NCBI GenBank assembly: GCA_918797485.1
Contig: CAKKNE010000004.1
Span: 620,001-684,000 of the forward strand
Direction of reading: 5' to 3'
DNA: 64,000 nucleotides
Origin: Pelagomonas calceolata
Lineage: Eukaryota
Shown here: positions 28,482 to 62,129 of the stretch, in pieces
How the letters are laid out: the number at the start of each line of letters is the position of its first letter
Numbering within the stretch: position 1 is the stretch's first letter
Made by a program: the position numbers and the translations under genes
The notes under the pieces: generated by a model
The model's database searches: none
Told to the model about the DNA's origin: nothing
The model's input: the letters and a program-made list of their open reading frames with translations, nothing else

Positions 28482-28504
28482 GCTAGCGCCTGTAAGACAC
28501 TAGC
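28482..28504 (+). promoter_or_regulatory. CTAG-bracketed intergenic motif copy
   Basis: GCTAGCGCCTGTAAGACACTAGC. Confidence 0.7.
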
Positions 28505-36646: not shown

Positions 36647-38899
36647 ATGGGCCGTGGCGCTGCGCGACGCACGGGAGATGTTGGGAGCGGGCCCGGCGGG
36701 ACCAAAGATGCGCACAAGAAGGCCTTGGGGCCCCAAGACGGCGGCGGCGGTCCGTCGACGGTAATTGCTTTGGGTGGAAACGGGTCGGGCTCGTCACATC
36801 CGACGAAGCCCGTCGATCTAGATGCTACTACGAAGAAACGTTACCGTTTACGCCATTTCAAACGTTTGAAAGAACGCAGCAACCGACGTAAGCGTGATCA
36901 AGATGAACGCCTTTTCACTAAAAGTCTGAAGGCGACGGCTACCAACGAAGAGCCGAATCGGAAAGAACGTCGCGAGGGTGTTCAGGGTTTTAAACCGGCC
37001 AAAAAAACAGTAAAATTGAGCGTTCCGCCGCCCAAGCCCGTGATCGTAGATGATGGCTCAAACAAATTTGGCTCTCTTCATGTGGAAACCGAAGTCACAT
37101 CATCTCTTATTTCTAAGACCACAACCGCCTCTACCACTACATCTGTCGAGGAAGACGTTTATTGGTCGCCACGCAAATCTACCGATAAACCAGTTATTTC
37201 CTACAAAGGAGAAGAGCTTGATCCAAAGGATGAACGTGACTCTAAGATTTGCAACGTCGTGCTGCGCGGTAATCACTATATTAATAAACAAGAGCGTCGC
37301 ACGACCTTCGTGGGGGCTCTGAAGACGCACTTCGACGCGCATAAGTCTGGTGATGACGGCCTGTCGAAGAAAGATGTGAACGCCGCGCTCAAGTCCTTTG
37401 CCAAGAAAGATAGAACGGGCAAGTTCCCGAAGCTCGAGGAGCTCGAGGCGCTGTTTGGAGACATGGATCTGAACGGCGCGGGCCGCGTGTCCTACGACGA
37501 GCTGACGGACTTCATCGACGACATCGACGCCGACGACATCGGCGCCGGCCGCAATCGCCGCGGGAAGGGTGCCGGTGGTATCGAAACGATTTACCTAAAA
37601 GAAGATCGTGTTCCTAAATTAGATTACATTTACCGTGAAGACCTACAAGTGACTTATTCTCTAAAATTAGGACGGTTGAAACTGCGGTTGAAACTGCGAT
37701 ATATAATTCAGCAATTGGCCTTCCGTCGTCAACACAAGGTGTCATTGAAGGTGACCCACCTGATGGCTGAGACCTTCAAACGCAACTTGATGTTCCTAAA
37801 CAACATTCCTAACAAAGATGTGGTGGTGTCTCATGGGCTTCTGGCGCTGCCTTCCACTTCCGACTGCGCGGCGACTGCTGCGCCCGGCGAGGCGTCCTTC
37901 GAGGGCCAGCACGCGGCACTTGCGGCGCTGGGCCAGGCCGTGCTCGCGGCGCTGGGCGTGGCGTTCTTCCAGGGCTCGACTCCTATCGATGTCGTCGGGG
38001 GCTACGTCTTCTCGCTGGACGTCCTCGGCGACGCGCTGTCGCTGGACGTGCTGACGAACTCAAATGTGCTTCACAAGACGGGCTTCATGGGCGCGGCGCC
38101 GACGGTGGTCTTCTTGGGTGGTTCGGAGGGACTCAACGCCCTCTTGCTGGACGCGTCGGCGGCCGCGGCGCTCGACGGCGTGTTCAAGGGCCTCTTCGGC
38201 GTCGCTGCGCTTCGCGGGCAACCGGTAGTCGTGGGCGCGGCGCCGGACGTGCCATTGTATAATTCTTCGGACGGCCTAGACGTCTTCTCGGACAACCTCT
38301 GCCAGCGGGCTGGCGGCGCGCGGCTCGTGGGCGCGTTGACGGATTCATTAGATGGGCTACGGACGGCGGGCCTCGCGGCGGCGGCCGCGGACGCGGCGTG
38401 CGTCCAGGGCTCGGCTTCGCTCGACGTCGCGTTGTGTCAGAACTCGCCGCGGGCCGTCGCGCGGCTCGTGGGCGCGTTGACGGATTCATTAGATGGGCTA
38501 CGGACGGCGAGCCTCGCGGTGGCGGTCGCGGACGCGGCGTGCGTCCAGGGCTCGGCTTCGCTCGACGTCGCGTTGTGTCAGAACTCGCCGCGGGCCGTCG
38601 CGCGGCTCGTGGGCGCGTTGACGGATTCATTAGATGGGCTACGGACGGCGGGCCTCGCGGCGGCGGTCGCGGACGCGGCGTGCGCCCAGGGCTCGGCCGC
38701 TCGGCGTCGCGTTGTGTCAGAACTCGCCGCGGGCCGTCGCGCGGCTCGTGGGCGCGTTGACGGATTCATTAGATGGGCTACGGACGGCGGGCCTCGCGGC
38801 GGCGGCCGCGGACGCGGCGTGCCCAGGGCCCGGCTTCGCTCGACGTCGCGTTGTGTCAGAACTCGCCGCGGGCCGTCGCGCGGCTCGTGGGCGCGTTGA
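36647..38899 (+). CDS. 5' part of giant mosaic gene (basic region, EF-hand pair, hydrophobic segment, start of VNTR)
   Basis: ATG 36647; DLNGAGRVSYDEL EF-hand; terminates after two 2-bp deletions in the repeat array. Confidence 0.6.
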   Translation: MGRGAARRTGDVGSGPGGTKDAHKKALGPQDGGGGPSTVIALGGNGSGSSHPTKPVDLDATTKKRYRLRHFKRLKERSNRRKRDQDERLFTKSLKATATNEEPNRKERREGVQGFKPAKKTVKLSVPPPKPVIVDDGSNKFGSLHVETEVTSSLISKTTTASTTTSVEEDVYWSPRKSTDKPVISYKGEELDPKDERDSKICNVVLRGNHYINKQERRTTFVGALKTHFDAHKSGDDGLSKKDVNAALKSFAKKDRTGKFPKLEELEALFGDMDLNGAGRVSYDELTDFIDDIDADDIGAGRNRRGKGAGGIETIYLKEDRVPKLDYIYREDLQVTYSLKLGRLKLRLKLRYIIQQLAFRRQHKVSLKVTHLMAETFKRNLMFLNNIPNKDVVVSHGLLALPSTSDCAATAAPGEASFEGQHAALAALGQAVLAALGVAFFQGSTPIDVVGGYVFSLDVLGDALSLDVLTNSNVLHKTGFMGAAPTVVFLGGSEGLNALLLDASAAAALDGVFKGLFGVAALRGQPVVVGAAPDVPLYNSSDGLDVFSDNLCQRAGGARLVGALTDSLDGLRTAGLAAAAADAACVQGSASLDVALCQNSPRAVARLVGALTDSLDGLRTASLAVAVADAACVQGSASLDVALCQNSPRAVARLVGALTDSLDGLRTAGLAAAVADAACAQGSAARRRVVSELAAGRRAARGRVDGFIRWATDGGPRGGGRGRGVPRARLRSTSRCVRTRRGPSRGSWAR

Positions 38900-40092
38900 C
38901 GGATTCATTAGATGGGCTACGGACGGCGAGCCTCGCGGTGGCGGTCGCGGACGCGGCGTGCGTCCAGGGCTCGGCCGCTCGACGTCGCGTTGTGTCAGAA
39001 CTCGCCGCGGGCCGTCGCGCGGCTCGTGGGCGCGTTGACGGATTCATTAGATGGGCTACGGACGGCGGGCCTCGCGGCGGCGGTCGCGGACGCGGCGTGC
39101 GCCCAGGGCTCGGCCGCTCGACGTCGCGTTGTGTCAGAACTCGCCGCGGGCCGTCGCGCGGCTCGTGGGCGCGTTGACGGATTCATTAGATGGGCTACGG
39201 ACGGCGAGCCTCGCGGTGGCGGTCGCGGACGCGGCGTGCGTCCAGGGCTCGGCTTCGCTCGACGTCGCGTTGTGTCAGAACTCGCCGCGGGCCGTCGCGC
39301 GGCTCGTGGGCGCGTTGACGGATTCATTAGATGGGCTACGGACGGCGGGCCTCGCGGCGGCGGTCGCGGACGCGGCGTGCGTCCAGGGCTCGGCTTCGCT
39401 CGACGTCGCGTTGTGTCAGAACTCGCCGCGGGCCGTCGCGCGGCTCGTGGGCGCGTTGACGGATTCATTAGATGGGCTACGGACGGCGAGCCTCGCGGTG
39501 GCGGTCGCGGACGCGGCGTGCGTCCAGGGCTCGGCTTCGCTCGACGTCGCGTTGTGTCAGAACTCGCCGCGGGCCGTCGCGCGGCTCGTGGGCGCGTTGA
39601 CGGATTCATTAGATGGGCTACGGACGGCGAGCCTCGCGGTGGCGGTCGCGGACGCGGCGTGCGTCCAGGGCTCGGCTTCGCTCGACGTCGCGTTGTGTCA
39701 GAACTCGCCGCGGGCCGTCGCGCGGCTCGTGGGCGCGTTGACGGATTCATTAGATGGGCTACGGACGGCGGGCCTCGCGGCGGCGGTCGCGGACGCGGCG
39801 TGCGCCCAGGGCTCGGCCGCTCGGCGTCGCGTTGTGTCAGAACTCGCCGCGGGCCGTCGCGCGGCTCGTGGGCGCGTTGACGGATTCATTAGATGGGCTA
39901 CGGACGGCGAGCCTCGCGGTGGCGGTCGCGGACGCGGCGTGCGTCCAGGGCTCGGCTTCGCTCGACGTCGCGTTGTGTCAGAACTCGCCGCGGGCCGTCG
40001 CGCGGCTCGTGGGCGCGTTGACGGATTCATTAGATGGGCTACGGACGGCGGGCCTCGCGGCGGCGGTCGCGGACGCGGCGTGCGTCCAGGGC
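38317..40092 (+). repeat. Coding minisatellite: 13 cores, with 12 intervals of 141 bp (x7) or 139 bp (x5)
   Basis: GATGGGCTAC core at 38351, 38492, 38633, 38772, 38911, 39050, 39189, 39330, 39471, 39612, 39753, 39892, 40033. Confidence 0.97.
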
Positions 40093-43000
40093 CCGGAGGC
40101 AGTCTTGTCCGACAATACCTTGTTAGATGAGGCCATGGAGAAACATCGACTCGATAGTATGAAAGAGCAAAAAGTGATACAAATATTGGTCGTTACCGCC
40201 TCGGGCGCGAAGAGGCCCTCTGTTTTTGTGAAGCCGTGGGCGATCGTCGGTGATCTCATGCGCGAGATCCAGCAGAAGATTGGTGGTCCCCTGTCAAAAT
40301 ATCAGTATCTGCAGTCCATCGGCGGCAGACAGATGCACAAAGCCGCTTTGCTCCAGCACTACGACATCCAGAATAATTCTACTGTGGTTTTGTCGGAGCC
40401 CTGGCCTGGGCATCTTCTAGGAGGCTCGTTGTTGTCGTTGAAAGAGCTCATTGACAAGGGCAGCCTAAACGTGGGCGACATCATCGTCTTCAGAGAACAC
40501 AATCACCAAGAGGAAGGCGAACTGCTCGAGAACGGTTGGATCAGGCACGAGGGCACAGTCTACAAGTCGGCGAGCGCGTTCGTGGGGGCGATGCGCGGGC
40601 AATCTTCCAGTGGATATAACTTTCTCTATACGGCTACCGGTACGCCGATCCAGTCGCTCCGCAGCGACCCCTCCGAGAGTAGCTCGAACGACGACGACTT
40701 GCGCAGCGACTCGAACAGCGACGACGAGGCGCCCCCGCAGCCGCCTGGGGACCAGCAGCTCGCGGGCCGGCGGCGGCGCCAGCCAACCGAGCGCTTTGAT
40801 CATCAACAGCAAGAGGGCGAGTATTATGTGAAGCGTGGGCCCGCTGTGGGTGGCGCAGGCGACGGTGACGACGACGTGGTCATGGAGGACGATGACGAGC
40901 AGTCCCAGCCGCAACAAGCTCCGCTCATATCCACACAACCTATAGGTAACAGTAGCTCGAACGGCGACGACTCGAGCAGCGACAGCAGCGAGAAGGCGAC
41001 GCCCTGGATGACCCGCCCTACGGACGACGCCCAAATCCGGCGCAACCAGGCCGAGGCGCGGAGGAAACTAGCTGCTGAGAGGGAACGGTTGAAGAAGAGA
41101 CCTTTAGCGAAGGGCGGATTGTCGTCGGACGGCGGCAGTGCATCAAAGCCCTCTCCGCAGAAGAAGCGCGCGCCGCCGCCGCCTCCTCCTCATGACGCCG
41201 ACATGGAGGACGAAGACGAGCAGCTGCAGCTGCAACGAGCTCTGATCATGTCCAAACAACGTATGGAAGAGGGATTGGTGAAGGACGATGGCAAGCCGGC
41301 GGCGAAGCCGAAGCGCAAGCGCCGCGTGATCGAAGAACTCGACGAAGAGGACGACGGCGGCGCGCTGGAAGGGCTCACATCTCAGCCGTCCCTGCCCGAG
41401 CCACCCTCGAAAAACGATGACGGTCATCCATCTGCGACGGCGGACCACGCGCGGCCCGGCGGTGTACCGCCACCACCTTCTCTCCCACCGGCGAAGCGCT
41501 CGTGCCAATCCTCTTCGCCGACCTCCGGGAATGTCAAAGTGTTCTTCGACGGCGACCTGCCTAGCGAGTCCGTTTTACAGGGACTGAGGGACGCGGGCGT
41601 CAGCATAGTGAATCGGCCGCGCGACGCTACGTATGTCGTGTGCGAGGAGCCGCTACGACTTTCGCTTACGTTTACCGCTGCCAGCTGCATCGTGCATTAT
41701 GCTGTGACTTACGAGTGGGTCCATGCTACCATCCAGGCCGTTCGCCCCGTAGATGCGACGAACTACGTTGTGGACAGCCACGAGCTCGAACAAGAAGTTG
41801 GATTTAATCTCGCCGATAATTTGAGGCGGAACCGTGAGGCGCGGGACCGCTCGGAATTACGCCTGCTTCAGGACTACGCGGTGTGTGTGGATCCGGACTT
41901 TCAGTGGCCACGTGATCTATTGCATGATTTGCAGGAGATGATCGACTGCTCCGACGCGATGCGGCTCGAATTTAGTAATGTGGTCGAATTAGACGGCACC
42001 CTACCGCAAGAAGGAGCCATCATCATCAAAGACGACAGTGGGCTAGTAGATGAGGCGCTTGTGGACGATATCGCGTCCCCAACCACTGTATTAAAGCACC
42101 GGTATCTCTGTGAGTGCCTTCTGAGGAGGGCGTACCCCTGGGAAGAAGTGGCCGAAGCACCAGCACCCGCCGCACCGGACTCGTCCTTTACGAGGCCCGC
42201 GACCATCGATTCCTTGAGGAACAACCCCCTTCCCTTGGAGTCTAGGCATAGGCCGCCAGGTAGCGCTATTGTGCATGGGGACTACGACCTCCTCGAGGTG
42301 CTATGTGCTAAAGCTGCTAATGCCACACCAGCGGAAGTTGTGGCCTGGAAAATTTATGGAAGTTTACGTCTCCAAGACCTCAAAGATCTCCTGGAAGCGA
42401 ACGGCCAGTCCAAGGTCGGCAACGAGGCCTTTGTACTCAGAAAGGTCATTGACGGCGCGGCGCGCGGCGCGCCGGCCATCTGTAGTATCTGTGGGCAAGG
42501 CAAGCCCAAGCCCGTCGAGGGCGAGCTAGGGAGGTGGTGTTGCCCCGGCTACTATGATCAGTCTTTATCTTATACGAGCTGCCCCCAGACCTGGACGGAC
42601 GCGACACTACCTAGAAAGCAGTGGATCGATACAGATAGAGGCTTCGGCGGCCGGGCGAACCCTCCTTCTGTCCCTCTGCCCACGAGCTTCACGCAAGATG
42701 AGGTTAACGACTTCTACGCCAGAGCTGAGACTCGCCCGGTGGCACCGGCCTGGATGAGAGCACAAGTTGAGGAGGCGCTGGCGCCCGCCCCGCGGCAGGG
42801 CGATGCCAACACGCTCGACATGCTAGGCGAGCTCGTCGACCAGTTAAACCCCATGGTGGTGCAGAATTCGAGTGCTGCGGTTCGCCTCAACGTCCACATC
42901 ATGGGGATGAAACTAGTGACGCTCGCGAGATCGGGCGGCGATGGCGACGATCACGAAGAGGAAGGCAAGACTGGCGGAGATCCGAGTCCGCCACCGGCTC

Positions 43001-46000
43001 CACCTGCTCCGCGGGTGCCACTGCCAGAGGACGCTGACAATTGGCCAAAAGCTTTCATTGAACTGCTGCGCGAGAAGAAGGTGAAGTGCACCTTTACGGA
43101 TCCAAATCCCAAGTCAGCACGGCGTTGGTTAGGCGCCAAGTCAGCAAGTGCTGCTCGCTATGATGGGTATATGGGCGCCACCAATATCGGGGATTATTTC
43201 GTCATCTTCGGCGGCAACATGGGTGACCTGCGCAACGATATCGATCATAAATACTGCAAGCTCGACAAATCGGCGCGCGACGCCGCGTGGCTCGAGTTCT
43301 TGGAGTCGGGCGAGGACTTTCAGTCGAAGGCGGCGGCGGCGGCGGCGAGGGCCAAGCCCGGCGCTAAATCGGGCGGCGGCGCCGCCGATGACGCTGATAA
43401 TGAGGACCTGATTGACACGGATACGAACCCTCCGACAGAGCCCCTCGTACTGCCACCTAACTGGAAAGACAGCGTTCGGCGGCGCCCGAACTCTCAGTTG
43501 GAAGCAGCGGTGTGTGCGCTGGATGCCGCCCTCAGGGGCAAGACGAGCTTTACTAAGGAATGGGACCTACTCTTGAAGCATCGCTGTTATTGTTTATATC
43601 AACACGAGGACGATCCAGCTAATAAAGCAGTGAAGAACCTCGAAGTGCCGATCGGTTGGCCGTCATACAAGGGGTTCAGCAAGGACCCAAAGAAGAATAG
43701 ACCTTCCAGCCTGAAGTTGTTGCGCAAATACCTCAAGTATGCACTGCGACTCGCGAAGGAAGGAGGCGAATACTGCCTAGACGGCGCGCAGAGCGAAAGC
43801 AATCGCTGGTGGCCGGAGGAGAGGGAGAAATTTCACGAGGCCATGGCGACGCTCAACATAAAGCGGAGCGGGGGTGCAAAGAACATATTGAAGGACGACT
43901 GCCGCCGGATCGCGGAGAGCATACCCAACAAAACGACTGAGCAGGTCCTTAGGCACGGTGTTGGTTACTTCAGCTCCTTCGATGCGGAAGCGCAAGCTAT
44001 TGAAAAGCTCACTAGAACTGGCGACCCCTACGTGAAGTCCGTCTTGGACACGGACGCCACCGACGCGTCCAAGCTCCTCTTCTGCATCATATCTACAGGC
44101 CGGTGGGTCGACGCCAAACTCATTGAATTGAGACTGTTAAAAGCTGGCCTAGGAGCATCACAAATACTGTGGGTCGTGGGCACCCAGGGAGAAGTGGCCA
44201 AGTACAAGTCGCAATGCTATGGTGAAGTAGTAGTAGGAGGCGGTCTCTCTGCGTCGAGAAACGAAGCTCTAGATCAGGCCCGACGCCGCGGCTGCGTGTG
44301 CGTGCAACTGAGGGACAGTGTTTGTAAGTGCGTGGTAATACAGGAGGGCAGATCGCTAGCTGATTTCCACAAAGGGATAGGTCTGTGGAAAGAGCCAGCG
44401 AGTCTGAAGGCGGCCAACACCGCGGGCTCGAAGAAGGTGGAGGCGACACTGGTGGTCGCGGCCGAGTTGTTGTACAAATTGATGAAAGCGACGGACAAAC
44501 GCTTGGCAGGCTGCTTCCCTGTCCGGAACGAGGGCTTCGCCGCAAGCAAGGAACCGGTGCAGCAGCGGGAACTTGTTGATGAAAGGCTGTTGGTAATCGA
44601 CCCGAAGGACACCGAATTGAAATTCGACGAATCATTGAATTTCAGGGAGGTCGACGAGTTCACGGCGCAGCACTTCAACACTTATGGCGGGATTTGTAGA
44701 TCAAACCGCGTGCTGTGTGTGGGACAAAACGACCAGAAGAAGCGACGTGTGGGGCTAGGATCCTGGGTCACCCCGGAGGGACCTAGTGAAGAGGATAAAC
44801 GGAACGCCATCGATTCACTGCTCAATAAGCATCGCGACTTGTTCCGTGAGAGGATCATCTACAATAGAACAACACGCCCGCACGATAGATATGTGTTGAG
44901 TTGGAAACAAAAGGACGCCTCTCCGGAGCCGAAGGATCAAAATGAGACCATGGAGGACGTGCAGCCCGGCGAGCAGACCAACCCGTCTACACAACTACCG
45001 TTCGACGCCGCGTCTTTGGCGGCCCTGGAATGTCCGCCGGTGCCGGCAGCTATGCGAAAACCGACCCCAAAGGAAAAATTTATACGCTTCGCATTTCTGG
45101 CGCGCGAGACGTTCAAGTGTGAGAACGGCGAAAAAAGCGAGGCTGCCCTGATTTTGCCACACGAAGAAGGCAATTCCCGACAGGAAGGCCAGGTTCGCGT
45201 GCTTTGCGAGTTAGTGAAAGGTAGGTTCACCCACAAGGTGAAGTTCGCATCACGTGCTTCTAAGGAGCAGCTTACTATTTTGGGAGAGGACGATTATGGC
45301 TTCGAATTTATACGGACGAAGGCGCCTGCGATGTACAGAGATATGAAGTGCATTTTTGTGGTGGATCCCAGGGCCAAGGGTGGTTCTTTCAGGCCCCGAT
45401 GTGCCCATGCGAAAGGTTTTGTCACACTCGCCAATGGATGTGCGCGAGGCTTAGAGTGCCCTAATTCTAAAATAGACATCGAACAGCACCACATCACCGC
45501 GCATGAACGCGACTGCCTCTTGGCCCCATCCACAATGCTCATCAACACGGGGTTGCTCGCCAGCGGCATTTGGGGAAGGCAACGACCCTTACACAAGCAG
45601 CTCAACAAGCTCTGGGAGATGATCCAGCATCAACATTCCATTAACGATAAAACCTTTGTCCATCGAAACGAGATCTCGGTTCCAGTTGACACTAAGCAGT
45701 CAGGCGACGCATATGGTGGACATAGTACTCTATGGAATGAACTCAAACCAGGCGGCAAATTATTTAGGCACTTGAAAGAAGCTGTTCCTACTCGTGTACA
45801 TGATCTGCTGCCAGAGGGTCTGCCCAACGACTTCACGACGCGGGGCACGTACTACGAACTCAAGAACGATAGTGAAGAATACTTCCCGTTCTGGGGCCGG
45901 GACACGCTTCTCTATTATGAGCCCAAGTCGAAAAATCAAACGCTGTCCGTCGTTTATGGGAAATGCCCCATAACAGGAGTGGGCGGACGAAAGACGAAGA

Positions 46001-46128
46001 AACAAAATCCTTTTCCCCTTGTGCTACACCACATCACAGTCGATAAAAAGGAATACTTTGTTGGCTTCATCAACGACAGTGTGAACAGGGGCCTCGGCAG
46101 CACCGGCGCCCCGAATCCGTTTGCCTAG
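39754..46128 (+). CDS. 3' part of giant mosaic chromatin/DNA-modification-domain protein (Ubl, RAMA, UIM, 2xBRCT, PADR1, SANT, GT-A, EndoVII-like); alternative start ATG 40135
   Basis: Uninterrupted 2124-codon frame with successive recognisable modules (see findings). Confidence 0.8.
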   Translation: MGYGRRASRRRSRTRRAPRARPLGVALCQNSPRAVARLVGALTDSLDGLRTASLAVAVADAACVQGSASLDVALCQNSPRAVARLVGALTDSLDGLRTAGLAAAVADAACVQGPEAVLSDNTLLDEAMEKHRLDSMKEQKVIQILVVTASGAKRPSVFVKPWAIVGDLMREIQQKIGGPLSKYQYLQSIGGRQMHKAALLQHYDIQNNSTVVLSEPWPGHLLGGSLLSLKELIDKGSLNVGDIIVFREHNHQEEGELLENGWIRHEGTVYKSASAFVGAMRGQSSSGYNFLYTATGTPIQSLRSDPSESSSNDDDLRSDSNSDDEAPPQPPGDQQLAGRRRRQPTERFDHQQQEGEYYVKRGPAVGGAGDGDDDVVMEDDDEQSQPQQAPLISTQPIGNSSSNGDDSSSDSSEKATPWMTRPTDDAQIRRNQAEARRKLAAERERLKKRPLAKGGLSSDGGSASKPSPQKKRAPPPPPPHDADMEDEDEQLQLQRALIMSKQRMEEGLVKDDGKPAAKPKRKRRVIEELDEEDDGGALEGLTSQPSLPEPPSKNDDGHPSATADHARPGGVPPPPSLPPAKRSCQSSSPTSGNVKVFFDGDLPSESVLQGLRDAGVSIVNRPRDATYVVCEEPLRLSLTFTAASCIVHYAVTYEWVHATIQAVRPVDATNYVVDSHELEQEVGFNLADNLRRNREARDRSELRLLQDYAVCVDPDFQWPRDLLHDLQEMIDCSDAMRLEFSNVVELDGTLPQEGAIIIKDDSGLVDEALVDDIASPTTVLKHRYLCECLLRRAYPWEEVAEAPAPAAPDSSFTRPATIDSLRNNPLPLESRHRPPGSAIVHGDYDLLEVLCAKAANATPAEVVAWKIYGSLRLQDLKDLLEANGQSKVGNEAFVLRKVIDGAARGAPAICSICGQGKPKPVEGELGRWCCPGYYDQSLSYTSCPQTWTDATLPRKQWIDTDRGFGGRANPPSVPLPTSFTQDEVNDFYARAETRPVAPAWMRAQVEEALAPAPRQGDANTLDMLGELVDQLNPMVVQNSSAAVRLNVHIMGMKLVTLARSGGDGDDHEEEGKTGGDPSPPPAPPAPRVPLPEDADNWPKAFIELLREKKVKCTFTDPNPKSARRWLGAKSASAARYDGYMGATNIGDYFVIFGGNMGDLRNDIDHKYCKLDKSARDAAWLEFLESGEDFQSKAAAAAARAKPGAKSGGGAADDADNEDLIDTDTNPPTEPLVLPPNWKDSVRRRPNSQLEAAVCALDAALRGKTSFTKEWDLLLKHRCYCLYQHEDDPANKAVKNLEVPIGWPSYKGFSKDPKKNRPSSLKLLRKYLKYALRLAKEGGEYCLDGAQSESNRWWPEEREKFHEAMATLNIKRSGGAKNILKDDCRRIAESIPNKTTEQVLRHGVGYFSSFDAEAQAIEKLTRTGDPYVKSVLDTDATDASKLLFCIISTGRWVDAKLIELRLLKAGLGASQILWVVGTQGEVAKYKSQCYGEVVVGGGLSASRNEALDQARRRGCVCVQLRDSVCKCVVIQEGRSLADFHKGIGLWKEPASLKAANTAGSKKVEATLVVAAELLYKLMKATDKRLAGCFPVRNEGFAASKEPVQQRELVDERLLVIDPKDTELKFDESLNFREVDEFTAQHFNTYGGICRSNRVLCVGQNDQKKRRVGLGSWVTPEGPSEEDKRNAIDSLLNKHRDLFRERIIYNRTTRPHDRYVLSWKQKDASPEPKDQNETMEDVQPGEQTNPSTQLPFDAASLAALECPPVPAAMRKPTPKEKFIRFAFLARETFKCENGEKSEAALILPHEEGNSRQEGQVRVLCELVKGRFTHKVKFASRASKEQLTILGEDDYGFEFIRTKAPAMYRDMKCIFVVDPRAKGGSFRPRCAHAKGFVTLANGCARGLECPNSKIDIEQHHITAHERDCLLAPSTMLINTGLLASGIWGRQRPLHKQLNKLWEMIQHQHSINDKTFVHRNEISVPVDTKQSGDAYGGHSTLWNELKPGGKLFRHLKEAVPTRVHDLLPEGLPNDFTTRGTYYELKNDSEEYFPFWGRDTLLYYEPKSKNQTLSVVYGKCPITGVGGRKTKKQNPFPLVLHHITVDKKEYFVGFINDSVNRGLGSTGAPNPFA

Positions 46129-56622: not shown

Positions 56623-57408
56623 ATGCGACCCCAGGCGGCGCATTCGCCGAGACACCGACGCCAGGCCGCCGCCGACCGCCACCGCCGCGGCGAGGCAGCC
56701 GACGACCCAGCACCGGTGTGGTACCACCCACCCTCACCAGAAAGGATGCCCATTGCAAGGGACGATCCGCCGCCGGCGCCGCCGACGACGGACGCCGAGA
56801 CCGACCAGTACTGGGAGGAGAACAAGGGCGACGCTACGACTGACAGTGCCGTCTTCAAAACGGCAAGAGACGAGGCGCCCACCGCGCCCTCGCGGCCGCT
56901 CAAGCGCACGGGGTCCGGCGAGGTTGAGTTCGAGATCGTCGCTAGCCCGCATGCTAAAATTGGCAACGAGGGCCGCAGCGAGGAGCAACGAGAAGCTCTA
57001 CGGAGGGAACACGAACGGTTGTGTGAGCTTGATAGGATTGCGAGGCAACAAAGACTAGAAGCGGAGGCGGAAAGGGATAGGATCGAGGAGGAGCGGCGGC
57101 GGCGAGACGCTGCTAGACCTCTGCACCAGGGCCAGCGGATTACCAATAGGGGCAGGCAGACGCGGCAGCTCGTGTCCGCTCCCGGCGACGCCTTTAGCGA
57201 CGTGCGCGGGCCGCCGCCGCCCGTGCGCCGCGTCGCACCGCCGCCGGCACCGCCGCGGTCGCCCGCCAAAAAAGGCGACGTCGCGTGGCACCTGCACCAG
57301 GCGCTCGAGGCGAGTTTGCAGGAAAATGATAAACTCAAGGCGGAGCTCGCGCGGTACAAGGCGGCCTACGGGGAGCTGCCGCGGGATGGTAGAAGGACGT
57401 ACCGCTAG
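56623..57408 (+). CDS. Hypothetical coiled-coil protein
   Basis: ATG 56623; charged helices; C-terminal LQENDKLKAELARYKAAYGEL. Confidence 0.6.
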   Translation: MRPQAAHSPRHRRQAAADRHRRGEAADDPAPVWYHPPSPERMPIARDDPPPAPPTTDAETDQYWEENKGDATTDSAVFKTARDEAPTAPSRPLKRTGSGEVEFEIVASPHAKIGNEGRSEEQREALRREHERLCELDRIARQQRLEAEAERDRIEEERRRRDAARPLHQGQRITNRGRQTRQLVSAPGDAFSDVRGPPPPVRRVAPPPAPPRSPAKKGDVAWHLHQALEASLQENDKLKAELARYKAAYGELPRDGRRTYR

Positions 57409-57751: not shown

Positions 57752-60025
57752 ATGGCAAGATCTGGTGCTGAGCAGCCCGCGCTGCGGGTCTTACATCACG
57801 TCACCGCGCCGTACCGGGGCCGCGGGCAATTCGTTGGCATCGTCGTCAGCGTTGGCCGCGGCACTGTAGACGTGCACTTCCGAGACGGCGACTTCGCGGC
57901 CGGCGTGGACGCGGCGGCGGTGTCGCTGTACACGGGGCGGCGCCCGCGCGCCAGCGCCGGCTTGCCCCTCGCCGAGCGCATGCGTGTGGCTCTTCTGAAT
58001 CAGCCGTCGACGCCTCTCGTTGTCGTGGCGTACGACGACGCCTACGCCGTCGTCAGCGGCCCCGACGGCAACCGCGCGTACCAGCGGGACATGCTACGCG
58101 CGTTCGACGACCACGATTCGTCCGAAGACCAGGCGCCGGCCACGCCGATGGACGATGATGACGATGATGACGAAGACGCGCCCGCGCCGCAACTCGCGCT
58201 CGGCGAGACGGTCATGGTGGGACGCGTCGGGCACGTGGCGACGGTCGAGCAGGTGCCGCGCGCCAGCGATGAAAAAGTGCTGCTGCGCTGGGAGAGCACG
58301 GGCCACTGCGAGGAGGTCGCTCTCTCGGAAGTGGAGAAGCTCTCCGCGGGCCGCTCGTCGCGCCGGTCGGCTCCGCGGGCGCCGGTCGCGACGCCGCGGC
58401 CCTCGCCGCCGGCCGCGCCGCGAAGGCAGGCGCCGCCGGTGCCGCGCGTCACGCCCTCGCCGACACCTGAAGCGGCAGATAGTTCGGACGACGACGCTTC
58501 GTCCGTTCTGGCGCTTCGGCAGTACCAGCCGTTAGCCGATGATACCGGGACTGGTCAAGCCGATGCGCCGTTCGAGGGTTGTTTCTCGGACGACGAGGAT
58601 CCGGCGCCCAAGCGGGCGCGCAAGGACGAGACGGCGGACGACGAAGCCATCGCTGTCGCGCTCGCGGGTGTGTCTTCGGACGACGAGGGCGCCGCGCCGC
58701 CTTCGCAATTGGAGATCCCGAGGAACCTGCGAGACCACCTCAAAGGCGGCCCGAACGACCAAGCTCCGGCGCTCATGCCGCGGGACGACAGCGACGACGA
58801 CCGCGACGGCGAGGCGCCGGCGGCACCGGTGCGGTCGCGCCAGATTGTCGTCGGCGACGACGTGTGGGCGCGGTTCGGAGGCAGGGACGACTTCTACGCC
58901 GCGACGATCACCGCGGTCCGCCCCGACAACACGTACGACCTCATCTACCGGGACGGCGACGAGGAGTCGCGCGTCGCCGCGCCGCTCGTCCTGGCCGTCG
59001 GACTCACGTTCAAGGTGCGGTTCCGCTCGTCTGGAGAGCACCGAGGCACGGTGACGGCCATCGACCGCGTCAACGGCGTGACTCTGGCGTGGCGGCCCGT
59101 TGTGCCGAAGCCCGGCGAAGGCGTTGTCGTCGAGCACGAGACGCGCTCCTTCGACGAGGTCCGCACGGAGGTCATCGAGCGCGCGACGCCCAAGCCGCGC
59201 GGCCCGGTGGCGGCGCCGCCCCCGCCGGAGAAGAGAACGAAGGGCACGCGCGCCGCCCGGCGGCTCATCTTCGACCCGCGCGCGCCGCCGAAGCCTGCGA
59301 ACCCGCGCACGCGGGAGCCGGTCTTCAAGGAGATCTTTGCCGGGACGAAGAGACTCTCGACCGAGCTGCAGACGACCTACGGCTACGCGTGTGAGACGGT
59401 CGACGACATGACGTGGCCCGGCGCGGCGCGGCCGAGCCGGCGCTGCTGCGTGCTGGACTACTCGATCGAGAACGTGGGCTGGGTCGACGGGGCGCATTTT
59501 GCGTTCCCGTGTAGGACGTTTAGCGCCCTGGCGATCGAACATCACCGGCCGTTGGTCGTCCGGGGCCGCCGCGTGCTCGAGGGTTCTTCGATCTCGCCCG
59601 AGGCGCAGAAGGCAAACGCCGTCGTGCGCCACTGCATCGAGCTCATGCGCGAGGCGCGACGCGTCAACCCAGAGTGCGTGCTCATGGCGGAGAATCCCGC
59701 GACGGGCTACCTGCAGCACTTCCAGCCCTGGAAGGACGCGGTCCGCGAGTTCGGGCTCGTGCGCCGCGACGTCACTTACTGCAAGTTCGGCGAGCCGATC
59801 CGGAAGCTGACGTCGTTCTGGAGCGACATCCCGGCGCTCCACCAGGAGGCGGCGGACGACCGCCTCTGCTGCTCCGCGGAGAAGCCCTGCCAGCACTTCG
59901 GGGCGCACGAGTCCGTACAGGGCGACGTCGCCAGCGCCGCGAGCGCGTACCCCCAACGAGTCGCCAACTGGCTCGCGCGGCTCGCGAACGGCGAGATGGA
60001 GTCGCGCGGCGCGCGGCGGCGCTAA
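57752..60025 (+). CDS. Tudor-like domains + C5 cytosine DNA methyltransferase-like domain
   Basis: EIFAGT (motif I), FPCRTFS (IV), MAENP (VI), YCKFG..RKLT (VIII), SAYP (X); N-terminal SH3/Tudor-like barrels. Confidence 0.8.
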   Translation: MARSGAEQPALRVLHHVTAPYRGRGQFVGIVVSVGRGTVDVHFRDGDFAAGVDAAAVSLYTGRRPRASAGLPLAERMRVALLNQPSTPLVVVAYDDAYAVVSGPDGNRAYQRDMLRAFDDHDSSEDQAPATPMDDDDDDDEDAPAPQLALGETVMVGRVGHVATVEQVPRASDEKVLLRWESTGHCEEVALSEVEKLSAGRSSRRSAPRAPVATPRPSPPAAPRRQAPPVPRVTPSPTPEAADSSDDDASSVLALRQYQPLADDTGTGQADAPFEGCFSDDEDPAPKRARKDETADDEAIAVALAGVSSDDEGAAPPSQLEIPRNLRDHLKGGPNDQAPALMPRDDSDDDRDGEAPAAPVRSRQIVVGDDVWARFGGRDDFYAATITAVRPDNTYDLIYRDGDEESRVAAPLVLAVGLTFKVRFRSSGEHRGTVTAIDRVNGVTLAWRPVVPKPGEGVVVEHETRSFDEVRTEVIERATPKPRGPVAAPPPPEKRTKGTRAARRLIFDPRAPPKPANPRTREPVFKEIFAGTKRLSTELQTTYGYACETVDDMTWPGAARPSRRCCVLDYSIENVGWVDGAHFAFPCRTFSALAIEHHRPLVVRGRRVLEGSSISPEAQKANAVVRHCIELMREARRVNPECVLMAENPATGYLQHFQPWKDAVREFGLVRRDVTYCKFGEPIRKLTSFWSDIPALHQEAADDRLCCSAEKPCQHFGAHESVQGDVASAASAYPQRVANWLARLANGEMESRGARRR

Positions 60026-60104
60026 GCTCGCGGTCTGAGTAAGAAGCTATTGTGTGATATCTCTTGCTGGTCTGGTATTGTTAGGCGCTAGGACTCGCTG
60101 GGCA

Positions 60105-60127
60105 GCTAGCGGCTGTAAGACACTAGC
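60105..60127 (+). promoter_or_regulatory. CTAG-bracketed intergenic motif copy
   Basis: GCTAGCGGCTGTAAGACACTAGC upstream of ARM gene. Confidence 0.7.
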
Positions 60128-60188: not shown

Positions 60189-62129
60189 ATGGCGCCCCCA
60201 GATGCACAGAATGGCCACGCGCCCAGCAACGGGGCAACGGAGAGCAATGGGGCACCGGAGCAAGCCACCGCACCCCTAATGCCTCCTGCCGCTGCAGCGC
60301 TGGTAAAAGACGCGCCAGCGCTGCAAACCATCACGAGGGGAGAGCTCATGGACACGCCGCCACCACCACCCCCAGACGCCGACGACGCCGACGCCCGCCC
60401 GCTGGAAGATCACCTCCGCGAGTGCGTCGCCGTCCTCAAGCGCCGCAAGGGCCGCGAGGAGCCGGTGGCGCTGCTGCTCAGGGACTTCTGCGCGGCGCAT
60501 CCTGACCAGCGCCACAAGGTCGTGAAGGCTGGATGTATTGGGCCGCTGATCGGGCTCGTGCGGTCCTCGCGAACCGGCAGCTGCAAGGGCGCCGCCGCTG
60601 CAGCGCTCGCCCAATTAGCGTACGACGACGAGGGCAACCGACAGGCCATCCTGGCATGTGAAGGCGAGAAGCCGTTGGGAGCATTGGTTGTCGACCGCAA
60701 CGCGCCCCCGACGGCGCGAGCTTCTGCGTGCGACTGCCTCGCCAATTTAGCTGCGGGCGCGGCGGACGGCGTCGTGGCCGCGCGATTACACGTCGCGGCG
60801 TTTACAGCTTTAGCGACCGACGACGAGAGCAGTTTTGACGTGAAGGCGTCGGCCGCGCGCGCTTTAGCTAACGCTTTACGGCCGCTGGAAGACGTCGAGG
60901 ACGAGGCGGTGAACCCGTCGCTGTCGCAGTGCGCGCTGGAGCTGCTTGCGAGTGATCATAGGGAGGCCGGCGCTTCATTAGCGCGGGCCCTCGTTTTAGC
61001 GACGGAGCTCGACGAAGGTACGGTCAAAAAGTTGTCTGCTGCATTGGTCGCGGCCATCGATAGCGACGGGGCGATCGGCGCCCTCGCTAATTTACTAGCA
61101 AGGGGCGCCACGGCCGCTCCGAGCGTACTGCCAAAACTCGTCGCGACGCGTTCCCAGGCCTCAATCGTCTGTATCGGCAACTTCGCGCTGAAAGATGCTG
61201 GTGCTGTTGTTGACTGTGGAGCGGTTCCCGTGCTCGCCGACTGTCTAGGAGATGAGGCATTAAGGAGGAGCGCGTGCGCGGCTCTACGGAACGTCGCCGC
61301 GTCGAATCCGGGCGCCGTCGCGCCTTTTAGTGAGGCGCTCGCCCGGGTGTTGGGAGAAGTGCCGAACGAGGCGGCGGGCGCCCTGCAGAATATTGCGATG
61401 GTCCAGCCCGCGGCCGTCGCGACGTATGCCCCGGAACTCGCTGTTGCTTTGAAAGACGCTCCGAGAAAAGCGGCGTGTGCCTTGGCGCACATTGCGGCGA
61501 GAGACCCCGCCGACGTCCCGGTGACGCCGCTGGTCGAAGCGTTGAATAATGCCAAGAGTGCTTCCGCAGCGTGCTGCGCTCTAGCTTGTGTAGCAAGCGA
61601 CACACCTGGCAGAGCGGCTCTGGTGGACGCGAAAGGCGTGCCTTCATTAGTAGCTCTCCTCGAGGACGACGACGCAAAGTGCGCCTGCGCGGCAGCACAT
61701 GTGATAAGGAACCTCGCGTGTGACGATAAGGGACGGAGGGCGCTATTGATCAACGGCGGTGCGGCCGCTCTATCGGCCGCGGGCCTCGAGGGCGACGACG
61801 AGGCGGCGCAGCTCCGCGTGGAAGCTATTGCGAACCTGTGCCTCGGGGACGCCGCGGACCGGACGGCTGTGGTGAATGCGAAATGTATTAGACCCCTCGC
61901 GAAGCGCGCCCACGTGTTGAAGTGCGGTGCCGCGGCGGATGCTTTGGATAGATTGAGTGTGGACGAGGCCGCTTTGGTGAATAAGGCGCGGGCGGCCCTC
62001 ACGCCGAAGAAGGCCACGCCGCGGCGCCTGGGCCCCCGGCGCCTGGGCCCGACGCGGAAGCCCGCGCCCTACCAGTGCGTCTCGCCCGTGCCGCCCGCTT
62101 CTGCGGACGGGCCCGATAGTGTGTTGTGA
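60189..62129 (+). CDS. Armadillo repeat protein
   Basis: GCIGPLIGLV, AAAALAQLA, GAVPVLADCL, GVPSLVALL..AAHVIRNLA. Confidence 0.88.
   Translation: MAPPDAQNGHAPSNGATESNGAPEQATAPLMPPAAAALVKDAPALQTITRGELMDTPPPPPPDADDADARPLEDHLRECVAVLKRRKGREEPVALLLRDFCAAHPDQRHKVVKAGCIGPLIGLVRSSRTGSCKGAAAAALAQLAYDDEGNRQAILACEGEKPLGALVVDRNAPPTARASACDCLANLAAGAADGVVAARLHVAAFTALATDDESSFDVKASAARALANALRPLEDVEDEAVNPSLSQCALELLASDHREAGASLARALVLATELDEGTVKKLSAALVAAIDSDGAIGALANLLARGATAAPSVLPKLVATRSQASIVCIGNFALKDAGAVVDCGAVPVLADCLGDEALRRSACAALRNVAASNPGAVAPFSEALARVLGEVPNEAAGALQNIAMVQPAAVATYAPELAVALKDAPRKAACALAHIAARDPADVPVTPLVEALNNAKSASAACCALACVASDTPGRAALVDAKGVPSLVALLEDDDAKCACAAAHVIRNLACDDKGRRALLINGGAAALSAAGLEGDDEAAQLRVEAIANLCLGDAADRTAVVNAKCIRPLAKRAHVLKCGAAADALDRLSVDEAALVNKARAALTPKKATPRRLGPRRLGPTRKPAPYQCVSPVPPASADGPDSVL

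Follow-up and report, generated by a model that had tools for sequence, protein, structure and literature searches.

A stretch of 64,000 nucleotides from Pelagomonas calceolata (contig CAKKNE010000004.1, positions 620,001 to 684,000 of the forward strand; hereafter the window) carries a gene in which a compact C5 cytosine methyltransferase of the type found in phages and mobile elements is fused to a series of Tudor-like barrels. The gene is expressed and lies among ordinary host genes, and related metagenome loci hold strongly divergent versions of it in the same slot. We regard it as roughly an even call that this is a host gene whose product docks on chromatin and whose versions are kept as balanced classes by conflict. 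What is new is an expressed compact methylase wired to predicted readers, with divergent classes in one slot; the catalytic class itself is known from phages.

A compact methyltransferase of viral kinship

Motifs I (FxG), IV (PC) and VI (EN) of C5 cytosine methyltransferases are present in the fusion open reading frame (ORF). As a single query the methylase domain had no match in Pfam, PHROGs or PDB sequences, and single-query scans of viral and metagenome contigs returned nothing. The fusion protein (P0001) also stayed below the cut-off of Pfam PF00145, to which a phage relative scores E 3e-8 and the protein P0201 E 0.34. None of 160 pattern matches from a prokaryotic genome scan was confirmed; of 36 from a viral scan with alignment A3, one was, a viral-type protein that stands alone; and a plasmid search gave one weak match (E 0.07). 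In tblastn, Bacillus phage 'C5 methylase I' proteins cover 92% of the domain at ~26% identity (E 7e-6). These relatives are phrog_757; the PHROG profile is matched by two of seven family members (best E 6e-5) and not by the query. A profile-profile comparison was set aside as circular, both of its alignments containing the query. A viral profile of 67 non-redundant proteins from 80 loci, with the query left out, matches the fusion ORF at E 2.4e-11, its sole match among the window's six-frame pieces. The profile of A1 matches M.HhaI at E 6e-4, and ESM Atlas features give a score of 0.95.

A domain model built from a 79-row alignment that includes viral homologues reaches a predicted local distance difference test (pLDDT) value of ~94, against only 38.5 for a single-sequence model, and has a Rossmann-type C5-methyltransferase fold. 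The top 18 VIA ranks are all C5 methyltransferases (Z 10.2-14.6), among them DNMT3A (Z 14.6, root-mean-square deviation (rmsd) 3.9, 200 aligned) and M.HhaI (Z 13.3, rmsd 3.3, 198 aligned), and Foldseek against C5 methyltransferases gives E ~1e-6. DNMT3A/B are the top fold matches, yet they are 10-16% identical and only ~1.3 Z above M.HhaI. Among viral folds, an unnamed protein of 210 aa (TMt 0.79) and a Tetraselmis virus 1 methylase match best, a partly circular result since the model was shaped by viral rows. The C5 domain described in the original prediction is thus borne out by its FAG, PC, ENP, YC..RKxT and YP motifs, the viral profile and the fold ranks, and the Rossmann fold, whose absence would have refuted the prediction, is present in the model. 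The prediction's assignment of the enzyme to a foreign, phage or mobile-element type also agrees with the phage tblastn matches, the viral profile, the viral folds and, weakly, a retroelement-like polyprotein, P0203, that ends in a related ENP methylase domain (E 1e-4; one of five matches among 7990 candidates scored). P0203 presumably encodes a reverse transcriptase, judging from its motifs. Its cluster of 37 members may represent retrotransposons that carry a DNMT and form a family apart from those of DNMT3 type already described.

G531, C587, E647-N648-P649, Y676-C677, K685, T687, C707 and C713 are invariant in all rows that cover them. The catalytic cysteine is found in 17 of 17 covering eukaryotic rows, and ENP in all 61 viral rows and all 18 eukaryotic rows, the latter not being independent of one another. 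The C-C-C-H cluster noted earlier is real; its conserved set is C677, C707, C713 and H719 (kept in 18/18 eukaryotic rows), while C706 and H715 vary, and the first four residues form the predicted zinc site. A quick-method tree of 44 rows (23 of the 67 viral rows, without DNMT1-6) recovers the classes described below, but its long branches meet and the donor cannot be named.

Genes of the compact class in phages sit among DNA-metabolism and other methylase genes, and no fixed partner gene was found near the viral relatives in 62 of 83 extracted neighbour ORFs scanned. Phage Hobo (L001 1450-4188) has three C5 methylase genes in a row beside a DNA polymerase, the middle one belonging to the compact class. 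A compact methylase (30% identity) also lies inside an 850-aa, probably eukaryotic protein with a different N-terminus (P0155/P0200/P0201).

Tudor-like barrels and linker

Three to four barrels had been predicted, and four fold (residues 14-60, 148-197, 363-415 and 416-478), with a Tudor profile backing only 14-60 and 363-415. This Tudor-repeat profile was made from 300 of 1209 stramenopile repeats, picked with barrel 4 as seed; barrels 1 and 4 alone beat all 500 shuffles, and barrels 2, 3 and 5 show no clear match to it, with ESM leads of at most 0.82. Barrel 4 accounts for most of the 150 matches listed, which are stramenopile Tudor-repeat proteins with up to 33 matched stretches each that score Tudor_5, Agenet and 53BP1 families. 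In a weak alignment to 53BP1 (E 0.84), W, Y(F), D and Y are retained in barrel 4 of class B; class A has F375, Y382, Y399 and D401, but D403. Which 53BP1 residues form the aromatic cage is presumed here. Barrel 5 is kept in classes A-E. A viral Tudor fold matches the barrel region with rmsd 1.0 over 53 columns, the barrel not being specified. By eye, two apparent copies of the stramenopile Tudor repeat also occur in a 1703-aa TPR and ankyrin protein at window 326-5437.

An acidic-alanine motif resembling the ubiquitin-interacting UIM and MIU recurs in one to three copies in seven of nine family sequences. The helix once proposed for this segment survives as a recurring motif, with no Pfam UIM match and no helix in the model; that the motif binds ubiquitin is a guess.

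Expression and setting

Around the ORF the chromosome is gene-dense, eukaryotic and ~63% G+C, and the exact 757-aa protein is on record in NCBI/UniRef from a 5.3-Mb contig. In four polyadenylated (polyA) RNA runs from one sample, sense-strand reads lie along the gene at a depth of 0-41 per bin and no splice joints were seen; two GC-rich bins with low depth were not counted as a sign of introns. The G+C content of third codon positions (GC3) is high. The C at window 59221, a third codon position, is an A in the DNA runs X1, X2 and X8, a silent difference. The gene can be called domesticated, as was proposed, in the sense that it is polyA-transcribed, has ordinary host genes around it and occupies the same slot in 6/6 loci.

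One slot, divergent classes

A metagenome scan, in which six loci (L084-L089) were confirmed among 155 pattern matches, is the sole source of locus context. All six are syntenic with the window, and in each the methylase gene occupies this one slot, surrounded by ordinary host genes. Class A comprises the window and L084, class B L085, class C L086-L088, class D L089 and class E P0084. Classes A, B, C and E are mutually 41-49% identical, and D is 70% identical to C. In five loci the neighbour genes are ~80-98% identical despite this divergence of the methylase classes. The ARM (armadillo-repeat) gene beside A, B and C is 87-91% identical, with a synonymous divergence (dS) of ~0.6 in every pair tested, and the five flank haplotypes are roughly equidistant. 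L089 represents a more distant genome (flanks 75-79% identical), and its methylase piece is 73% identical to class C and 54% to class A.

G-C changes at fourfold sites were used to offset the GC3 of 0.87 in the methylase gene. By this count the methylase is more diverged than the flanks between classes (17/48 vs 55/348, p 0.002), and within class A divergence over the whole gene is far below that of six flanking genes (9/333 vs 143/820, p 1e-13). Within class C the counts are 5/130 vs 7/38 in the flanks (p 0.006), or 18/148 vs 21/60 when all fourfold sites are taken (p 3e-4). L085 is a mosaic, with an A-type N-terminus and a B-type C-terminus. The position at which class-specific sequence ends in the six-locus alignment (Table 1) is likely the right edge of the exchanged tract, which is about one gene long and has no terminal repeats seen around it in the window or the related loci. 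The ARM gene follows the methylase in L084-L088. The junction between class C and the ARM gene occurs in three contigs with different spacers, and one shared misassembly is therefore unlikely. In classes A, B and C open frames connect barrel and methylase. At L088 1-700 well over 1 kb is missing and the upstream gene runs straight into the linker of the methylase gene, which reflects either a null allele or a misassembly.

Long-term balancing selection combined with recombinational exchange characteristically leaves deep classes that vary little within themselves and are shared across lineages. On these sequence comparisons the classes are likely balanced alleles exchanged by recombination, and we think it quite probable that they are true alleles rather than paralogues. 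The gene's hypervariability, its exchange between lineages and its occasional breakage point to a role in a conflict and not in a conserved pathway, and the additional epigenetic pathway of the original prediction, as a stable housekeeping one, is not supported.

Two further origins were considered and rejected. Cargo of a transposon or retrotransposon does not fit, as no terminal repeats, mobility genes or multiple insertion sites were seen at the loci; repeats in the last 10 kb of the window are GC-rich chance matches. An endogenous giant-virus element does not fit either, as there is no viral gene block and the neighbours are conserved, expressed and host-type.

Table 1. Features of the fusion gene and its surroundings (window coordinates)
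Feature	Position	Strand	Remarks
Left neighbour, 220-aa gene of unknown type	56746-57408	+	Synteny marker, not swapped
Tudor-methylase fusion gene, class A	57752-60025	+	757-aa ORF, no intron seen
Barrel 1, Tudor-repeat type, aa ~14-60	57791-57931	+	pLDDT ~78; 24 bits, reached by 0/500 shuffles
Possible barrel 2, aa ~72-118	57965-58105	+	Unfolded in model, pLDDT ~30; score reached by 67/500 shuffles
Barrel 3, SH3-like beta barrel, aa ~148-197	58193-58342	+	pLDDT ~92; Tudor score reached by 335/500 shuffles
Disordered Pro-rich/acidic linker	58343-58837	+	pLDDT <50
Basic KRAR stretch, aa 287-290	in linker 58343-58837	+	Possible nuclear signal
UIM/MIU-like segment, aa 293-309	in linker 58343-58837	+	
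Barrel 4, Tudor_5/Agenet/53BP1-like Tudor, aa 363-415	58838-58996	+	67 bits
Barrel 5, tandem partner of barrel 4, aa 416-478	58997-59185	+	pLDDT ~75-80; Tudor score reached by 21/500 shuffles
Compact C5 methyltransferase domain, aa 521-756	59312-60019	+	Motifs, viral profile, fold model
FAG motif, aa 529-531	59336-59344	+	
PC motif, aa 586-587	59507-59512	+	
ENP motif, aa 647-649	59690-59698	+	
YCxFGxxxRKxT motif, aa 676-687	59777-59812	+	
YP motif, aa 733-734	59948-59953	+	
Short 3' motif common to A, B and C loci	60036-60059	+	Six-locus DNA alignment; class-specific sequence ends here
Right neighbour, ARM gene	60192-62129	+	Pfam Arm E 1.3e-13; synteny marker

Neighbouring genes and other features

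The left neighbour lies directly upstream of the methylase gene, is strongly expressed, has a ratio of nonsynonymous to synonymous divergence (dN/dS) of 0.07 and has no Pfam match. It is 95% identical in L084, 98% over 48 aa in L088 and 75% in L089. The other flanking genes carry labels that we take to be Las1, SWEET, UBL and TPR.

Upstream of the ARM gene (window 60106-60126), and once more at 28483-28503, there is a 21-bp motif that begins and ends with CTAG. It is also present in L084 (11420), L086 (1811), L087 (993) and L088 (1519), with none expected by chance. Depth and loose ends indicate many genomic copies, and it is likely a dispersed promoter element. Elsewhere, window 36647-46128 contains a tandem repeat array at ~38.7-40.1 kb inside or before a 2124-aa ORF, and the stretch at 40-46 kb (GC 0.53-0.60, GC3 0.66) looks foreign or composite.

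Proposed mechanism and alternative explanations

The fusion protein would be imported into the nucleus, where the Tudor pair beside the enzyme would bind methyl-lysine; acidic helices may bind ubiquitin and, with the Tudor pair, tether the enzyme to nucleosomes. S-adenosylmethionine (SAM) would bind at FAG, C587 would attack a flipped cytosine held by E647, and the CCCH zinc site would shape the very short recognition region. The predicted outcome is methylation of host chromatin at cytosine C5, with each class perhaps writing a different sequence mark. Rare classes would be favoured, so that homologous recombination in the flanks would carry alleles from one lineage to another. With the enzyme tethered to chromatin, host DNA would be marked and incoming naked viral DNA would not, and such tethered marking could lead to self/non-self discrimination or to protection from virus-encoded nucleases. 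Viruses would be the likeliest force behind the class diversity, a tentative proposal which we hold somewhat less readily than the even call given above. Rather unlikely, and argued by analogy, is the fullest form of the idea: a eukaryotic self-marking system like restriction-modification, in which a tethered virus-derived methylase would write an allele-specific mark and virus-balanced specificities would outlast species. Precedents exist in other organisms: restriction enzymes encoded by a chlorovirus degrade the DNA of its host (PMC12700378), and 5-methylcytosine silences giant-virus insertions in Amoebidium (PMC11244446).

Several observations weigh against a chromatin-docked, balanced conflict gene. 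There is no direct sign of a virus link, and the Aureococcus virus AaV is reported to modify mostly adenines. The context rests on six metagenome contigs only, and four of the six loci carry a frameshift or truncation, which also fits relaxed selection or assembly error. The break is near the gene end in L085 and in the linker in L086, L088 has a large deletion and a frameshift, and L089 has a frameshift and a truncation that is shared by the examined members of cluster P0124; P0006-P0008 and P0084 also count as broken copies. Some of the breaks in L085, L086, L088 and L089 may be assembly errors. Within classes dN/dS is 0.37-0.61, against 0.07-0.18 in the flanks. Tudor identity lacks profile support for barrels 2, 3 and 5 (3 and 5 fold as barrels), and the class B alignment to the 53BP1 Tudor is weak. 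There is also a second sequence related to the N-terminal barrels, a 1096-bp contig ~80% identical to window 57781-58369 with a different spacer (contig 4 of X1 and contig 19 of X2, same organism, at ~0.7 of the neighbouring contig depth); paralogue-driven conversion is therefore possible.

Activity is questioned by motif VIII, whose canonical form is QxRxR (PMC4802922). The motifs earlier called intact are present, but in this one the arginines appear to be replaced by K685 and T687 in 79/79 rows, as read by sequence register, and in Dnmt3a the change R200K nearly abolishes activity (PMC4802922). No assayed enzyme of the compact K-x-T class was found in the literature, and no methylation was obtained in yeast with the orphan SymbioLINE enzyme, a result that its authors call inconclusive (PMC5890265). 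The enzyme might thus be catalytically dead or altered: it might serve as a chromatin reader, binding or flipping DNA, or might modify RNA or an already modified base. The very short DNA-recognition region would fit this, as would class B, where PC reads AC in 4 of 17 rows, and the substrates of orphan DNMTs are hard to predict according to Sarre et al. (PMC12344493). Set against it, the SAM motif, catalytic cysteine, glutamate and zinc cysteines stay unchanged across 41-49% divergence, as they do in a viral class with the same K-x-T, which is common to that whole class; an invariant arginine, 684, adjoins K-x-T in 18/18 eukaryotic rows; and the phage members are located among DNA-metabolism and other methylase genes. 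We judge a dead or altered enzyme to be distinctly unlikely, and think that the fusion methylase more likely than not acts on DNA.

The main rival takes the classes to be paralogues from a small family, the slot beside the ARM gene being overwritten through gene conversion or differential loss; several classes might lie elsewhere in each genome, or an ancestral tandem array might have lost different members. The 1096-bp contig and the L085 mosaic would both be expected of such a family, and Aureococcus is listed with five orphan DNMTs (PMC12344493 Table S1). Among the matches listed from the DNA runs, none is a second copy of the methylase part at 80% likeness, but classes B and C are ~60% identical in DNA and invisible at that cut-off. 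The window, L084 and L089 nevertheless have a single copy in the slot and no trace of any other class there, and low within-class divergence on equidistant backgrounds still requires exchange between lineages, so paralogy is considered unlikely, at nearly the level given to the full self-marking system. Deep classes shared across lineages and shallow inside are also typical of incompatibility and drive loci, and the locus might act in mating or meiosis, as a selfish or self/non-self factor for epigenetic compatibility or drive rather than against viruses. Meiosis genes have been reported in a pelagophyte (PMC9481584). Against such a role, which we consider improbable, there is no linked hypervariable partner, both neighbours being conserved (dN/dS 0.07-0.13), the swapped tract is only about one gene long, and all four RNA runs show expression of the gene. 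Neutral decay of an inserted mobile element or virus would account for the broken copies (L089, cluster P0124, P0006-P0008 and P0084) and the high dN/dS, but it is already disfavoured and hardly credible given expression, the absence of element ends or mobility genes seen nearby, open frames in A, B and C, invariant catalytic and zinc residues, and a slot kept in the more distant genome. An expressed, chromatin-docked conflict gene remains the preferred reading.

Comparison with known systems

Domain tests distinguish the fusion protein from DNMT1, 2, 5 and 6, and motif tests from DNMT3, for DNMT1, 3 and 5 in agreement with the original prediction. DNMT1, CMT and DIM2 are excluded by the lack of a BAH or RFTS Pfam match and by a domain of only ~235 aa in place of a long recognition region, and DNMT5 by an ORF that ends after the methylase without the C-terminal SNF2 ATPase (which is lost in some lineages). 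DNMT3 differs by motif, with ENP and K-x-T here instead of ENV and QxRxR. Architecture thus rules out DNMT1 and DNMT5; DNMT3 is disfavoured by its motifs but may still be a phylogenetic relative, the tree covering no DNMT3 sequences. DNMT2 and DNMT6 are defined as lacking companion domains (PMC9998398, PMC12344493), whereas barrels are present here. For ChloroDNMT, a clade of the green lineage whose members often carry a PWWP domain, the fusion protein shows no PWWP match in Pfam.

In the literature searched, outside of which lay subscription papers and bioRxiv supplements, neither a Tudor-methylase fusion nor allelic DNA methylase classes are described. No paper was found there on a Pelagomonas DNA methyltransferase or DNMT, nor on ENP versus ENV in motif VI of cytosine methyltransferases. 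The survey of Iyer, Abhiman and Aravind (2011) may list Aureococcus-specific methylases. In Hoguin 2023 (PMC9998398), the 12 of 23 supplementary files searched contain no pelagophyte genus name. The PF00145 search on which DNMT surveys rest misses this domain, so the class may be absent from such surveys.

The closest relatives in catalytic class are those of phrog_757 (Bacillus phage Hobo gp142, AXQ66900.1), which share FAG/PC/ENP, YC..G...KxT, three conserved cysteines and a length of ~220 aa; the Tetraselmis virus 1 methylase is similar in fold. The viral proteins stand alone without readers and have the fourth predicted zinc ligand at a different position, while the protein described here is barrel-fused and presumed nuclear. 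It thereby offers a route to the function of the compact phage class, which is large, uncharacterised and marked by K-x-T in motif VIII. The orphan DNMTs of Sarre et al. (2025, PMC12344493), a category that suits the present gene, are likewise lineage-restricted and foreign-derived. They are generally without companion domains, and that of Acanthamoeba is unexpressed (PMC12344493); orphan eukaryotic DNMTs are usually bare, silent passengers, in contrast to the present gene with its four or five barrels, expression and allelic hypervariability. SymbioDIRS-Dnmt3 and SymbioLINE-Dnmt (PMC5890265) recall the P0203 polyprotein with its terminal ENP domain; unlike retrotransposon DNMTs, the fusion gene occupies one fixed host locus, with no reverse transcriptase, repeats or multicopy spread.

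Catalytic domains joined to histone-mark readers have been acquired independently in ChloroDNMT (PWWP), plant CMT (chromo) and animal DNMT3 (PWWP/ADD) (PMC12344493), and EpiLTRs pair a DNMT with a chromodomain (bioRxiv 10.64898/2026.05.21.726589). ChloroDNMT, CMT, DNMT3 and the N4-methylcytosine (4mC) enzyme of Adineta all differ from the fusion protein in catalytic class and reader type. The Adineta enzyme is bacterial-derived and carries a chromodomain. We know of no balanced allelic classes for reader-fused methylases; if the present ones are such, they represent balancing selection on an epigenetic writer, shared across lineages. One gene with three to five natural versions would then be a test of methylation specificity under host-virus conflict in marine picoplankton. 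A similar arrangement is that of bacterial restriction-modification loci, in which divergent methylase versions occupy one syntenic slot and are swapped by flank recombination. Unlike these, the fusion gene is eukaryotic and has no nuclease partner seen, its product is predicted to be chromatin-tethered, and its classes differ across the whole methylase domain, not only in the recognition domain.

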